Below are positions 1 to 5,499 of a stretch of 5,500 bases of DNA, piece after piece; the first letter of the stretch is position 1, and each line of letters opens with the position of its first letter. Source of the DNA: Candidatus Jordarchaeales archaeon (lineage in GTDB: Archaea > Asgardarchaeota > Jordiarchaeia > Jordiarchaeales > Freyrarchaeaceae); the NCBI GenBank assembly GCA_038858525.1, contig JAWCFL010000062.1, positions 1-5,500 on the forward strand, in the 5' to 3' direction. The translations under genes and the position numbers were made by a program. The notes under the pieces are model-generated. The model was not told the origin of the DNA. It made no database searches and worked only from the letters and a program-made list of their open reading frames with translations.

Positions 1-1335
1 GGCTTAGAGGTGGGCTTGATCGAGCGGTCCTTCAGTGTTTCAGATAAGGCTCCATGCTCTATTAGGATAGATAGGCTTGAGAGCACGGACCGTGTAAGGA
101 TACTGCTTTACGTTTCGAGGAACGACACTGGCTTCCCCGTTACGAACGCCACAGTAAAACTCTTCTATATTAATGGAAGCGAAATTGTGCCGGACAGGAC
201 AGAGGACTATGGGAATGGGTCTTACTTCGTGGAGTTTACTCCGCCCGGTGAGGGCTTCTACAAGTTTAAGATAGTTGTGTCGGGGAGTCGCATAGAGACG
301 GCGGCGGTGACGGTTGAGCTTGCTTATAGTCCGCCGCCGTTGCCCTTGGGGTTGGTTGTTGGAGTTCTGTCTTTGATTGTGCAGTCTGCTCAGTCTGCTC
401 AGTTCTCACGTGTTCTCGCCTTTCTGGGTGTTTCGGTTGCGGCTGTGGTTGCTGGTGGTGTTGTTGGCGGTAGGTATTATAGGAGGTGGAGGGCTCCTGT
501 TAGGGCTATGGGTGCCGTGGAGAACGTGCTTGTTACGCACAGGGAGACGGGTCTTCCGTTGTGGAACTTTGACGTTCTCTCGCTGGATGTTGATGCTACG
601 CTTGTGTCGGGCTTCGTGTCGGCGGTGAGGAACTTTGCCGAGGAGATGAGGCTTGGGGGGTTCAACGTGCTAGAGACGCGCATTGGGACGTTCGTGAGGG
701 CTGAGAGCGAGCTTCTAGAGGTCGTTTGCGTCACTGGGAAGGTTGGCAGGCTTGAGGTTGAGTGGCTTAGGGGTAGGCTCGCCGAGTTTCTGAGGCTTGT
801 GGAGGCTGAGGCTGGCTCAGCGCTGAGGAAGTGGGAGGGTGGCGACGTCTCAGAGTTCAGGGATGTCTTCAGGCGTGCCTTCAGCAGCGTCTTCAACTAT
901 CCGAGGCTTGTCAGGCTTCACGAGGCGAGAATGAGGGGGCTGATTAAGGAGAGGGGCCGCTTGACTGGCGCCATCGCTTCCCTAGAGAAGGAGGCTAGGA
1001 AGGCTGGTGAGCTTTTCGAGAGGAGAGCTTTGAGCGTTGAGGAGTATGAGAGGCGTGTCTCTGAGCTGAGCCGTGAGAAGGAGGCGCTTGAGCAGAAGAT
1101 TGCGAGCATAGATGACACGCTTTCGAGGATGCGGGTGAGAGAGCTTATAGTAACGGGTAAGGTTGAGGAGGTAAGGGCGAGGTTTAACGAGATAAGGGCT
1201 GAGATAGACGAGCTCAGGAAGAAGGAGGAGAAGGGCGAACTAACCGACAGGGAGAGGAAGAGGCTACGTAGCCTTGAGAAGGAGCTCAGGAAGCTCATAG
1301 ACGAGCTGGGCAAGATAGAAGCTGGCGGCATGTAA
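1..1335 (+). CDS. 5'-truncated single-pass membrane protein: Ig-like beta-sandwich ectodomain, TM helix, cytoplasmic longin-like domain and C-terminal coiled-coil hairpins (Asgard-type)
   Basis: The frame is open from base 1 (GGC TTA GAG GTG...), so GTG at 10 is not the true start. The beta-rich module (TGFPVTNATV...GNGSY...GFY) carries 4 N-x-S/T sequons. The hydrophobic helix VLAFLGVSVAAVVAGGVVGG (412-471) is followed by basic RYYRRWR. ENVLVTHRETGLPLW...DATLVSGFVSAVRNFAEEM...KWEGGDVSEF (~514-894) resembles archaeal longin domains. An E/K/R-rich heptad region runs 895-1332. Stop is TAA at 1333-1335. Confidence 0.88.
   Translation, partial: GLEVGLIERSFSVSDKAPCSIRIDRLESTDRVRILLYVSRNDTGFPVTNATVKLFYINGSEIVPDRTEDYGNGSYFVEFTPPGEGFYKFKIVVSGSRIETAAVTVELAYSPPPLPLGLVVGVLSLIVQSAQSAQFSRVLAFLGVSVAAVVAGGVVGGRYYRRWRAPVRAMGAVENVLVTHRETGLPLWNFDVLSLDVDATLVSGFVSAVRNFAEEMRLGGFNVLETRIGTFVRAESELLEVVCVTGKVGRLEVEWLRGRLAEFLRLVEAEAGSALRKWEGGDVSEFRDVFRRAFSSVFNYPRLVRLHEARMRGLIKERGRLTGAIASLEKEARKAGELFERRALSVEEYERRVSELSREKEALEQKIASIDDTLSRMRVRELIVTGKVEEVRARFNEIRAEIDELRKKEEKGELTDRERKRLRSLEKELRKLIDELGKIEAGGM
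514..894 (+). other. Longin-like domain within ORF1 (residues ~169-295 of the track translation)
   Basis: The predicted order is beta-beta (ENVLVTH / LPLWNF), helix (DATLVSGFVSAVRNFAEEM), three strands (FNVLET / TFVRAE / LEVVCVT), then helices (WLRGRLAEFLRLVE, FRDVFRRAF). This matches the longin beta2-alpha-beta3-alpha2 layout and the 'LxSGFxSAxxxFxxE' helix typical of Asgard longin/roadblock-like proteins. Recognised by eye; no HMM was run. Confidence 0.65.
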
Positions 1336-2489: not shown

Positions 2490-2534
2490 ATTATAACGGT
2501 GATTATTATAATGGTGGTTATTATAATGGTGGTT
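2490..2534 (+). repeat. 3 x 15-bp tandem direct repeat (ATTATAAYGGTGRTT) overlapping the promoter, RBS and start of the ATPase gene
   Basis: 2490 ATTATAACGGTGATT, 2505 ATTATAATGGTGGTT, 2520 ATTATAATGGTGGTT. Copies 2 and 3 are identical and copy 1 matches at 13/15. Each copy contains the TTATAA palindrome (ATTATAAT in copies 2 and 3). Confidence 0.92.
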
Positions 2535-3749
2535 ATACCGAGGAGAGAGCTGGACCATGCTCTTCGCGGCTTCAAATGGCTACTGGTTTATGGGCGGAGG
2601 AAGACCGGGAAAACCTTCTATGTGAGGGAGAACGCTGAGTACGACAGGTACTTTGTGGTTCCGAGGAACAAGGTTCTCATCGACCTCTGCAGTGGGGAAG
2701 ATTATTCGCAGAGCGAGTTCAGGAGAGTTCTCCCCCTCATGGTTAGGGAAGAGAAGATCGTGGTGGACGAGTTCCACCGTTTGGATGAACCCGTGCTCTC
2801 GACTATTCAAGCTCTGAGCGGCGTTGGTCATCTTATACTGATAACGTCAACAATGCATTACTTCAAGGAAATGGTTGGGAAGGGGAGCCCGCTCCTCGGC
2901 CTCTTCGAGCTAAGGCAGGTTTCACTTGTTGACCCAAGGGACGCCCTGATCTTCGCTGAATCCCTCGGATTGAGAGAAAGAGAGATGTTTGAGGCCGCTT
3001 GCATCGTTCAGGAGCCGTGGCTTGCGCCGGTCGTTGAAAGGTACAGGGAGGAGGCACCATTCAGGCTAAAGGAGGCGCTGAGGGTCTACACCCCCCACCT
3101 GGTGGGGGAAGTTTTCGCGGAGGAGGACGTCGAACTCACAGCCAGATACTCAGCTATTCTGGGCGCCATAGCCAATGGAAAAAACCATTCTTCTGAGATA
3201 TCAAGCTACCTCTACTCGAAGGGGCTGATCGAGAAGGACAACCCCGGCCTCATCTCCCAGTACCTTAAAAACCTCATCCAGATGGGGCTAGTCAAAGCCA
3301 CACCGATAGAAGGAAAGAAAAGAAGGGGCTTCCAGTACAGGCACGCCTCCCCAATACTGGACATCGCATACTACCTAAACGAGAAATACGGCTTCTTCGA
3401 GGCAGACATGGACGAGCAGAGGGTTGGAGAAGTGTTCAGCGAGAGGATGCCATTATACATGGAGTGGTTTTTCGAGGAACTGTTGTCGAGAATGTTCAGC
3501 ATGCAGCCAGTCAAAATATCGAAGCCAGACCTGGAGGTGGACGTAGCACTCAGAGAGCACATGAAAGTGAGAGTCGTGGCGGAAGTAAAATGGAAAAGGA
3601 ACGTTGACAGCAAAGAGGTGAGCAAGATCGAGGAAAAACTAGCTAGGTTCGGAGAAGCGAGAAAAATACTGATCGTTCCAAGTGAAGACGTGCTTAAAAG
3701 AACACCCGAAAACATCGAAGTATGGGACTGGAAAAAACTGAAAAGGTAA
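2526..3749 (+). CDS. Archaeal ATPase, COG1672/DUF234 type: P-loop ATPase, winged-helix and C-terminal PD-(D/E)xK nuclease-like domain
   Basis: Walker A GRRKTGKT (2592-2615) follows hydrophobic WLLVY. Walker B is IVVDEFH (2757-2777), with ITST as a sensor-like strand. A wHTH-like segment reads YSAILGAIANG...SEISSYL...ISQYLKNLIQMGLV. The nuclease motif is EVD...AEVKW (3534-3593). The start is ambiguous among GTG 2499, ATG 2511 and ATG 2526; 2526 gives MVVIPRRE, like the short N-termini of this family. Stop is TAA at 3747-3749. Confidence 0.9.
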   Translation: MVVIPRRELDHALRGFKWLLVYGRRKTGKTFYVRENAEYDRYFVVPRNKVLIDLCSGEDYSQSEFRRVLPLMVREEKIVVDEFHRLDEPVLSTIQALSGVGHLILITSTMHYFKEMVGKGSPLLGLFELRQVSLVDPRDALIFAESLGLREREMFEAACIVQEPWLAPVVERYREEAPFRLKEALRVYTPHLVGEVFAEEDVELTARYSAILGAIANGKNHSSEISSYLYSKGLIEKDNPGLISQYLKNLIQMGLVKATPIEGKKRRGFQYRHASPILDIAYYLNEKYGFFEADMDEQRVGEVFSERMPLYMEWFFEELLSRMFSMQPVKISKPDLEVDVALREHMKVRVVAEVKWKRNVDSKEVSKIEEKLARFGEARKILIVPSEDVLKRTPENIEVWDWKKLKR

Positions 3750-3948: not shown

Positions 3949-5499
3949 TTACTTCTTTCTTCTTCCCTTCTTCTTTTTAACATCATCCCCGTACTTTTCG
4001 CCTTCCTCTTCTTCAGCTTTTTCTCCGCTTTTCTCCTCCGCCTCTTCTTCCTCCAATTCCTCTGCCTTCTTTGCCTCCTCTTTTTCCTCCTGCTTCTCCA
4101 GCTCACTGAGTATCGCTGCGCTTATGTCAGGTGGGACTCCTATGGATGCAAGTAGCCGCTCCCTGTCCGCCGGCGCACTAGCCCTGAGCTCCTTCAGGAC
4201 GGTGACAGCTCCCTCACTGCTCAACCCGCTCTCAACCAGTAATGGCACCAGCTTGTCCACGACCTCAACGGGCATCGCGGCGACTCTTGGCTCGACACCA
4301 ACGATCGCCATCTCCTCCCAGAGAAGGGACAGGATCACGTCGTCCCTACTAAGCGGCTTCTTAACCTCAACTTTGGCACCCTTCTCTATGGCTTCAATCA
4401 AGCTATCTATGCGCCTTATGATTAGAGGTATACGCATCCTCTTCACATAGACGTACCCTGCGAGGCTAGCGGGCGGAGCGATAACTGCAAGCGACACGAT
4501 CAGGAACATCGTCAAAGGTATTCTCACGTTAATCCCAGGTATTGCAACGCTCCTCTCCTTAACGTTCAGCACCTGGAAGGCTTGAGACGACTCGTAGTTC
4601 TCCGCGGAAGCTGAAACTACGATGGGTATGGTGGAGGGGGCGCTCGTTGGAACCACGAGTATGTAGCGTCCATCCCCTATGTATGTTAGTGGTACGCCGT
4701 TAGCAGTCACAGTAGCCCCTGGAACAGGGTTACCGTAAGCATCCTTATACTCGAAAACCAAAACAACAAAGGGAACACTATTCTCAACCTCGCCATAGCC
4801 TCCGAGCAGGACCAAGTATGGTGTAGCCCCTCCGAGGGCGAAGTTGCTCGCCGGAGTAACTGATGCCGCGACTGGAAGTATGCTGAACTCCACCTGCATC
4901 GGCTGAGCAGAGTAGTCCTCCTTGGAGGCGCTGAACACCACAGTGTACTTGCCCGGAAGCATATTGGTCGTATCAATACTAAGCGCGTAGACTCCGCCAC
5001 CTAAACTCTTAAGCTGAGCTTCAAACACGACTACGCCATCCTTCTTTATAACGCAGCTAACATTAGCATTTACAACTGGCACATCATTATGCATGTCCCA
5101 AACAGTAACCGTCAAGTTAAGCGTGTCCCTCCACCGCGTCTCGGAAACCTGAACGTTCTGGATGCTCATCGGAACAGGCTTAACAAACAAGTATATTGTC
5201 TTCTCCACCGGAACGTAGTTCTCTAGTTTGACGGTGAATGCGATGCTGTAGCTTACACCCGAGGAGAGAAGTGAAGTGTTGAAGGTTCCCGTGTAGTTGC
5301 CATCTCCATCCGCGTCGGTGAGAACGCCGATGAACCATGTCCCCTCAATGGAGTAGAAGACGCTTGCCACATTCCTCAGGGGCTCACCCGTAAGATTATC
5401 CTTGCAGTAAACGTAGAATGTGAAGCTGTCCCCAAAGACTACGTCGTATGTAGGCTTAAACTCTACGGATATTGGTCTTGGAGAGATTATTATAATCCT
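3949..5499 (-). CDS. 5'-truncated large cell-surface/membrane protein: at least 3 tandem Ig-like repeats, TM helix, helical cytoplasmic domain and acidic/polybasic tail
   Basis: I translated upstream of GTG 5370 and the frame stays open to the window edge (RIIIISPRPISVEFKPTYDVVFGDSFTFYVYCKDNLTGEPLRNV...), so the gene begins outside the window. It has three ~100-aa beta-rich repeats and 5 N-x-S/T sequons. The TM helix LTMFLIVSLAVIAPPASLAGYVYV (4444-4515) is followed by KRMR. The tail is E-rich and ends KKKKGRRKK. Stop is TAA at 3949-3951. Confidence 0.88.
   Translation of the reverse strand, partial: RIIIISPRPISVEFKPTYDVVFGDSFTFYVYCKDNLTGEPLRNVASVFYSIEGTWFIGVLTDADGDGNYTGTFNTSLLSSGVSYSIAFTVKLENYVPVEKTIYLFVKPVPMSIQNVQVSETRWRDTLNLTVTVWDMHNDVPVVNANVSCVIKKDGVVVFEAQLKSLGGGVYALSIDTTNMLPGKYTVVFSASKEDYSAQPMQVEFSILPVAASVTPASNFALGGATPYLVLLGGYGEVENSVPFVVLVFEYKDAYGNPVPGATVTANGVPLTYIGDGRYILVVPTSAPSTIPIVVSASAENYESSQAFQVLNVKERSVAIPGINVRIPLTMFLIVSLAVIAPPASLAGYVYVKRMRIPLIIRRIDSLIEAIEKGAKVEVKKPLSRDDVILSLLWEEMAIVGVEPRVAAMPVEVVDKLVPLLVESGLSSEGAVTVLKELRASAPADRERLLASIGVPPDISAAILSELEKQEEKEEAKKAEELEEEEAEEKSGEKAEEEEGEKYGDDVKKKKGRRKK
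4561..5499 (-). repeat. Three tandem Ig-like protein repeats in ORF4 (~5182-5499, 4879-5181, 4561-4878)
   Basis: Motifs recur in the same order in each repeat: KDNLTGEPLRNV / WDMHNDVPVVNANV / KDAYGNPVPGATV; DGDGNY / LGGGVY / IGDGRY; KLENY / SKEDY / SAENY. Repeats end in a beta strand followed by xP (FVKP, SILP) or NVK. Confidence 0.75.

Follow-up and report, generated by a model that had tools for sequence, protein, structure and literature searches.

A longin-fold domain behind the transmembrane helix of a predicted surface glycoprotein from a Jordarchaeales archaeon

Asgard archaea carry many eukaryote-type longin, roadblock and small-GTPase genes, and the cellular site and the control of their products are almost unknown. 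A stretch of 5,500 nucleotides (nt) from a Candidatus Jordarchaeales archaeon (GenBank assembly GCA_038858525.1, contig JAWCFL010000062.1) raises the question of what a longin-fold domain might do when it is held directly beneath the cell surface. This stretch, called the window below, is the entire contig C62 (5500 bases) of a 2.09-Mb metagenome-assembled genome that is 92.7% complete. Its first coding sequence (1..1335, + strand) encodes a protein that is predicted to join an immunoglobulin (Ig)-like ectodomain, across one transmembrane (TM) helix, to a longin-fold domain and a helical tail. The reading we favour, with a probability of about 0.45 for the whole statement including the architecture, is that this protein is a membrane-held docking platform whose partner is a small GTPase or a longin/roadblock protein.

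A predicted type I surface glycoprotein

Frame 1 of the + strand is free of stops over positions 1-1332 and translates into 444 residues (the query protein, P0001), followed by a stop codon at 1333-1335. The contig start cuts this frame, which is therefore open at its 5' end, and the window encodes the C-terminal 444 residues of what is predicted to be a type I surface glycoprotein of ~970 amino acids (aa). A GTG at nt 10 had been listed as the start, and this had to be given up as the frame runs open from the contig edge. Two proteins are nearly identical to P0001 (P0002, 99%; P0003, 97%), and P0004 and P0005 are longer orthologues. The proteins that are 97% and 82% identical are NCBI hypothetical proteins of Candidatus Jordarchaeales. 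Longer relatives of the 444-aa piece have 695 and 964 residues, and the orthologues of genus-mates lie in open frames of 974-978 aa. The absent N-terminal part was found on another contig of this genome, C51, which ends with it; genes for RACo and DUF2804 proteins come before it there, as they do before the orthologue in the related locus L009. The N-terminus on C51 has a basic n-region and then a hydrophobic run of ~18 residues, resembling a signal peptide, with many N-x-S/T sequons after it.

The DNA recurs in hot-spring metagenomes from at least six studies. A sediment study contributes three short RNA-library contigs, from two of its metatranscriptome libraries, which match the gene at 96-100% identity and cover only nt 282-493, 619-863 and 827-994. 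They are a weak hint that the window gene, or that of a close strain, is transcribed, and DNA carry-over is possible.

The membrane-proximal part of the ectodomain, residues ~17-109 (49..327, +), was modelled with AlphaFold2 (AF2) as a seven-strand beta-sandwich (pLDDT 86.7, pTM 0.74). Foldseek matched this model to titin, Dscam and NCAM Ig domains and to filamin domains in the PDB, with E-values of 2e-4 to 2e-3, and the Pfam Filamin family matched P0001 below its cut-off (E 0.0076; 17.5 bits against the 26.9 needed). Four sequons lie at 121..222 (+), all inside the sandwich: NDT at nt 121 (residue 41), NAT at nt 145 (residue 49), and NGS at nt 172 and nt 214 (residues 58 and 72). The sandwich is followed by a juxtamembrane element (328..411, +) consisting of a Pro-rich linker (328-345), a hydrophobic stretch of 14 residues (340-381; residues 114-127), and a Q-rich linker (382-411). 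All 16 family members examined keep this pattern, with a short hydrophobic stretch leading into a Q-rich linker, and some of them have sequons in the linker after the hydrophobic stretch. We read the stretch as an extracellular, membrane-proximal element. At the DNA level, a perfect 9-nt tandem repeat (nt 382-403) overlaps the Q-rich linker, and one RNA-library contig has an in-frame 3-nt deletion at nt 355, in the juxtamembrane stretch.

The single TM helix was placed at residues 138-157 (412..471, +) by Kyte-Doolittle hydropathy and by aligned TM segments in all family members. The 19-residue hydropathy window peaks at 2.35, and this is the sole segment of P0001 that reaches 1.8 or more. A basic cluster, RYYRRWR (residues 158-164; 472-492), comes directly after the helix and is followed by a short cytoplasmic juxtamembrane helix, which corresponds to residues 2-13 of the AF2 model of the inner domain and holds a proline that is invariant in the alignment (P7). 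The cluster and the short helix together occupy 472..516 (+).

Topology was assessed over 16 family members, with composition-preserving shuffles giving the expected number of sequons. The ectodomains contain 286 sequons in 5945 residues compared to 107.5 +/- 9.1 expected, and the cytoplasmic parts contain 5 in 4463 residues compared to 12.3 +/- 3.0 expected. For P0001 by itself the split of four to zero is a weak signal because its cytoplasmic part has just six Asn, whereas the family-wide signal is strong. Lys and Arg in the 15 residues flanking the TM helix number 80 on the inside and 13 on the outside across the 16 members. Full-length relatives have an N-terminal hydrophobic signal segment at residues 5-30, and a gene for an STT3/AglB oligosaccharyltransferase is present in the genome. 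Collectively, these results support, at the level of the family, a predicted type I single-pass cell-surface protein that would be N-glycosylated and surface-exposed, and we consider the architecture and topology together to be highly probable. A sequence-only reading of the window had proposed an Ig-like beta module carrying four sequons with none past the TM helix, a single TM helix with a positive-inside motif behind it, and a topology with the Ig-like part outside and the longin inside. Each of these proposals agrees with what was found: the module folds in the model as a seven-strand Ig-like sandwich, translation verified the sequon positions, hydropathy and the Lys and Arg bias mark the helix and its inner side, and the sequons, the positive-inside bias and the N-terminal signal peptides fit the orientation.

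A longin fold and a helical tail on the inner side

The domain behind the juxtamembrane helix, residues ~171-306 (511..918, +), was examined by AF2, Foldseek and VIA-align. The AF2 model of 151 residues (pLDDT 84.1, pTM 0.80) has, according to DSSP, strands at 14-21, 27-32, 64-66, 71-76 and 80-86 and helices at 44-60, 91-117 and 125-138. Their order, b-b-a-b-b-b-a-a, is that of a longin. The top Foldseek matches in the PDB were Fuzzy (the best), the AP sigma and mu subunits, zeta-COP, Mon1/Ccz1, SRX, Trs23 and Sec22b. When the model was compared by VIA-align with 48,161 representative chains, the 35 best matches were all longins (Z 8.1-10.9, 110-132 aligned residues), spanning residues 12-147 of the model and including Sec22b (Z 10.9), Fuzzy (10.6), VAMP7, Mon1-Ccz1, TRAPP and SRX. 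The solved Lokiarchaeota longin 8yqg matched at Z 9.1. The longin domain that had been proposed for residues 169-295 is thus upheld, with this region modelling as a longin, and the model supports the assignment of the fold well.

Sequence comparison was less informative about the type of longin. An exhaustive phmmer search gave 30 relatives at E <=1e-3, 22 of them at E <=1e-10, and a longin alignment was built from 28 sequences, including four paralogues from the window's own genome. Family motifs in P0001 are L-V-S-G-F-x-S-A-x-x-x-F-x-x-E (nt 601-645) and W-x-G-(G)-D (nt 826-858). When the 444-residue protein was scanned with Pfam and NCBIfam, no family exceeded its cut-off and there was just coiled-coil noise and the weak Filamin match; the longin Pfam families PF13774, PF19036 and PF01217 did not match P0001 at E <=1. 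Searching PDB sequences with the longin region by phmmer produced no match, and the best PDB match of the 28-relative profile was Trs23 at a non-significant E of 0.1. Sub-threshold matches to Pfam Fuz_longin_1, Clat_adaptor_s, Longin and Robl_LC7 occurred in only a few relatives or paralogues, and a language-model atlas search gave weak leads only (0.81-0.86).

The remaining 137 residues, 308-444 (922..1332, +), form a helical tail with heptad periodicity, conserved in alignments. It is rich in Glu, Arg and Lys, and its 3.5-residue periodicity was equalled by 0.2% of shuffles. Gly turns interrupt the tail and it is not one continuous coiled coil; the coiled coils proposed earlier stand to the extent that the helices are heptad-patterned, but with the Gly turns breaking them they are not plain coiled coils. 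Two helix-Gly-turn motifs in the tail (nt 1009-1068 and 1210-1296) resemble SHOCT. The SHOCT family (PF09851) matched below threshold (E 0.005-0.12) at the same tail position in five of eight members, and the SHOCT-like GvpG profile did so in six. One or the other was found in seven of the eight; P0001 itself had neither among its best 25 matches. We take the possible SHOCT resemblance as a lead only.

Three other ways of reading this architecture were weighed. Roadblock/LC7 domains of the MglB/LAMTOR type share the core of the longin fold, a helix precedes the first strand in our model, and two relatives have weak Pfam Robl_LC7 matches, all of which would suit a Roadblock/LC7 classification of the inner domain. 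Roadblock chains do match the model, at Z 7-7.9 over 87-99 residues, which is the shared core only and lies below the longin scores; P0001 itself has no Pfam match to Roadblock/LC7 (PF03259). The top 35 structural matches are all longins, the longin matches include both C-terminal helices (~120-130 aligned residues) where the Roadblock matches end at about residue 108-114, and the helix before strand 1 is the TM segment continuing. A Roadblock/LC7 assignment is thus very unlikely. Since the longin precedes heptad-patterned helices, a tether or fusogen that fuses membranes in the manner of Sec22, Ykt6 and VAMP7 was also considered. The longins of Sec22b and VAMP7 are among the best structural matches, and Pfam Syntaxin matches the tail weakly and under its cut-off (E 0.04-0.08). 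However, neither Synaptobrevin (PF00957) nor a SNARE-domain profile is among the 20 families listed for the whole protein at E <=1, the tail profile matches only generic coiled coils in the PDB, and the Gly turns break the tail. The protein also has a large extracellular domain, and its anchor comes before the longin with a soluble, hydrophilic C-terminus, the opposite of tail-anchored SNAREs. For want of a SNARE profile, with only generic coiled-coil matches and with the anchor on the wrong side of the longin, this reading was rejected as barely credible; the echo of longin SNAREs noted by the sequence-only reading fails on the same two points, the profile and the N-terminal anchor. A third arrangement, in which the hydrophobic stretches 114-127 and 138-157 form a helical hairpin and leave both the longin and the beta module on one side of the membrane, would account for the conservation of a second hydrophobic stretch before the TM helix, and this stretch reaches TM-like hydropathy in two relatives (P0021 and P0022). 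In most members, including P0001, it is 8-15 residues long and below TM strength, and several members have sequons in the linker between the two stretches. Because the first stretch is usually too short or weak to span the membrane and sequons follow it in the linker, a hairpin is most improbable. The signal segment at the start of full-length members, their sequon-rich ectodomains and the accumulation of basic residues solely after the second stretch also stand against it.

Conservation of the inner module and its possible role

The inner, cytoplasmic module of longin plus tail is 285-288 residues long in most of the 16 members, whereas the ectodomains range from ~70 to 750 residues. Across 15 members the module has 37 invariant columns, and between orthologues the cytoplasmic part is 82-86% identical compared to 63-74% for the ectodomain. 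A profile of the module was run against 400 genomes of the phylum. Each of the 11 genomes searched from this order has the full module, in one to six copies, and the longin part alone was found in 215 of the 400, mostly within very long open frames. Five such frames were excised. Three of them (1563, 1583 and 2582 aa), from other Asgard families, have 42-74 sequons and a TM helix, with the longin starting 35-55 residues behind it; the remaining loci have the same longin subtype with no TM helix before it. As these three giant proteins from other families share the arrangement, the order of ectodomain, TM helix and longin that the sequence-only reading had suggested looking for in Asgard genomes does recur. 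Judged by sequence, it appears to be a recurrent Asgard design of which the window holds a short-tailed, order-specific variant. When proteins of 77-266 aa were searched with a profile, all the names that came back were Asgard.

Four soluble paralogues of the longin subtype are encoded in the same genome (L005:1096-1881, - strand; L006:1486-2103, +; L004:1516-2007, +; L003:961-1848, -) and have the motif D-x-x-L-x-S-G-F-L-S-A-I-x-x-F in common. One of them is a fusion with Roadblock/LC7 (Pfam 1.5e-16), another a fusion with a winged helix, and a third is encoded beside a separate Roadblock gene. In a genus-mate, two adjacent short frames of 138 and 179 aa (G114:C1:158847-159357, -) correspond to parts of the module profile, positions 1-68 and 69-169; they lie ~2.5 kb from the intact orthologue and are possibly a broken tandem paralogue. 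Outside the phylum, the ESM Atlas contains proteins that resemble the longin model in fold (TM-score 0.67-0.69), some from Thermoplasmatota with DUF11/CARDB surface repeats and others from bacteria with OmpA and SH3_3; a likeness at this level does not show homology. They hint that there may be envelope proteins beyond the Asgard archaea whose inner domain is longin/roadblock-like.

In the reading that we favour, the protein, with its variable, sequon-rich ectodomain, would work as an adhesin or a receptor-like surface protein, and the longin and helical module, held ~15 residues past the TM helix, would serve as a docking platform for a conserved cytoplasmic partner. By analogy with the eukaryotic longin platforms Mon1-Ccz1, Fuzzy-Inturned, TRAPP and SRalpha-SRbeta, this partner would most likely be a small GTPase of the genome or a soluble longin/roadblock protein. 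The helical tail may provide self-association or a second contact. The cell surface would thereby be physically coupled to eukaryote-like switch machinery inside. A docking role is favoured because the inner module is strongly conserved, fixed in size and located directly under the membrane, and because it has paralogues linked to Roadblock and winged-helix domains; its constant length and 37 invariant columns imply a conserved partner. The class of that partner is named more tentatively and, taken separately, falls short of an even chance. A stronger version, in which the binding or clustering of ligands by the ectodomain is passed through the TM helix to a longin module that recruits or regulates a small GTPase or a roadblock/longin regulator, is rather improbable; if true, such a coupling device would prefigure, in prokaryotes, the receptor- or cargo-coupled recruitment of GTPases that eukaryotes use in trafficking and signalling.

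Several points weigh against a GTPase-linked docking platform. A shared fold shows no function, and longins also act as sorting signals and autoinhibitory domains. No sequence profile assigns the domain to a particular longin subfamily, and there is no small-GTPase or roadblock gene in the 5.5-kb window; the genome as a whole has at least 12 Ras-type matches. A complete relative (Freyarchaeum, G116) has six paralogues, of which a single one has Ras/Arf-type genes within 5 kb; for the remaining five the nearest Ras-type match is at least 100 kb away, and the orthologue of the genus-mate G114 is ~270 kb from its nearest Ras-type gene. At the one Freyarchaeum locus with such genes (L015:12981-18579, in the complete genome), the genes encode four Arf/Ras/Rag-like GTPases, one of which begins with a longin-like segment. 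This cluster is 2-7 kb from one family paralogue, on the opposite strand and with a radical-SAM gene between. A conserved GTPase neighbourhood was rejected, since neither the other five paralogues nor the genus-mate's orthologue shows this arrangement. The lack of a conserved GTPase neighbour agrees with what has been reported on Asgard gene order, namely that operons seldom combine GTPase genes with those of their presumed regulators (PMC10933270).

The same absence of conserved GTPase linkage would be expected of the main rival, a structural envelope or adhesion glycoprotein. Here the ectodomain would do the work, in a cell coat or in cell-cell contact, and the longin and tail would only serve to oligomerise the protein, to sort it or to fasten it to something such as the cytoskeleton or a certain region of the membrane, with no GTPase involved. 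Consistent with this, the ectodomain is large, variable and heavily laden with sequons, as in archaeal surface glycoproteins, and a gene for a giant surface protein with Ig repeats (~1430 aa) lies close by, in this genome and in a relative from another family of the order. The tail has, besides its heptad pattern, SHOCT-like motifs, for which a role in oligomerisation has been proposed, and the longins of eukaryotic SNAREs are sorting determinants bound by coat adaptors, as in the matched structures 3egd, 4afi and 2vx8. It is the inner module, however, that is most conserved and that keeps a fixed length beneath very different ectodomains, which points to a specific cytoplasmic interaction rather than a passive anchor. 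The fusion of soluble paralogues of the longin subtype to Roadblock domains, or their position beside them, likewise links the subtype to typical parts of GTPase platforms. We therefore regard a purely structural or adhesive role as somewhat unlikely, and prefer the docking platform.

If a GTPase partner exists, the family would represent a link from surface to switch that predates eukaryotes; if none does, it would represent a non-GTPase use of the longin fold in prokaryotes. The 285-residue inner module is a concrete, expressible bait for a partner search. Cultured Lokiarchaeia have been reported to have no ordered S-layer and to carry complex surface proteins (PMC9834061), and the family is a candidate identity for some of these.

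Neighbouring genes and known longin systems

Downstream of the surface-protein gene is a reading frame for a DUF3786-like protein (1406-2260, +) of 284 aa, or ~268 aa from a likely start near 1454, with a sub-threshold Pfam DUF3786 match. It is found downstream of the surface-protein gene across the genus, with 84% identity in L009. Upstream of the surface-protein gene, on C51 and in L009, there are corrinoid methyltransferase genes (B12-binding, URO-D, MtrH and RACo), and the DUF3786-like protein may belong with these. The next frame (2499-3749, +) encodes a 416-aa AAA/DUF234-like protein with weak AAA_14, AAA_16 and DUF234 matches. It is 90% identical to its L009 counterpart, and its sequence suggests an ATPase of the archaeal-ATPase type. 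The start listed for it falls within 3.5 copies of a 15-nt tandem repeat (2485-2536); translation probably begins near 2526-2538. These two downstream genes were not counted as partners of the surface protein, as they are kept in the genus and absent beside the Freyarchaeum members.

The far end of the window (3949-5499, - strand) encodes the C-terminal 516 residues of the second predicted single-pass surface protein, which is ~1430 aa long in the related L009. Its Ig-like repeats show a weak relationship to the module of the first protein, and it also has a single TM helix, a helical cytoplasmic domain that is conserved, and a tail that is first acidic and then basic. An atlas search with this cytoplasmic tail gave no usable match. 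A 1422-aa orthologue in Freyarchaeum (33% identity, E 2e-54) is encoded directly behind two members of the longin family, and giant Ig-repeat and longin-family genes are thus neighbours in two families of the order.

Asgard longins and their domain shuffling are already known. Published fusions join Asgard longins to GTPase, roadblock, TRAPPC3 and two-component domains (PMC10933270; bioRxiv 10.1101/2020.10.19.343400), and Asgard roadblock and longin proteins form dimers like those of TRAPP and Ragulator (PMC10933270). Searches of the full-text literature, subscription journals being outside their coverage, turned up no account of a longin placed behind a TM helix with a glycosylated ectodomain. 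As far as the searched literature goes, it is the position of the longin behind a TM helix and a sequon-rich ectodomain that is new. From the same phylum come the Roadblock-Longin protein of Lokiarchaeota (8yqg), which has the same fold, and the roadblock dimers of Prometheoarchaeum (9jq8 and 9jue). These are soluble, and the described Asgard longin and roadblock forms are cytoplasmic, whereas the longin of P0001 is placed behind the TM helix and the sequon-rich ectodomain.

Among eukaryotic systems, Fuzzy-Inturned (CPLANE), Mon1-Ccz1 and TRAPP Bet5/Trs23 (7q3d, 5ldd and 3cue) have the same fold and order of elements as the P0001 longin (Z 10.2-10.6 over 118-132 residues), with an identity of only 8-14%. 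They are soluble hetero-dimers that are recruited peripherally, whereas the P0001 longin would be covalently fixed behind a TM helix and an ectodomain. Sec22b, VAMP7 and Ykt6 (3egd, 2dmw, 4afi and 1iou) resemble P0001 in having heptad helices after the longin, and Sec22b is the top structural match. These longin R-SNAREs carry an R-SNARE motif and a C-terminal tail or lipid anchor; P0001, in contrast, has no such motif, is anchored N-terminally and has a large ectodomain. SRX of SRP receptor alpha with SRbeta (1nrj, 5ck3 and 2go5; Z 8.8-10.0) is a longin that is held at the membrane and works with a small GTPase. In SRalpha/SRbeta it is the GTPase that carries the TM anchor while the longin is soluble, whereas P0001 combines longin and anchor in one chain, and nothing points to a link with SRP. 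Ragulator differs in its anchor, which is the lipidation of a separate subunit, LAMTOR1, in its location on the cytoplasmic face of the lysosome, in the lack of an ectodomain and in being built of roadblock rather than longin domains. It is likewise, however, a permanently membrane-held platform of the longin/roadblock superfamily, and its docking of Rag GTPases is the idea proposed here for P0001.

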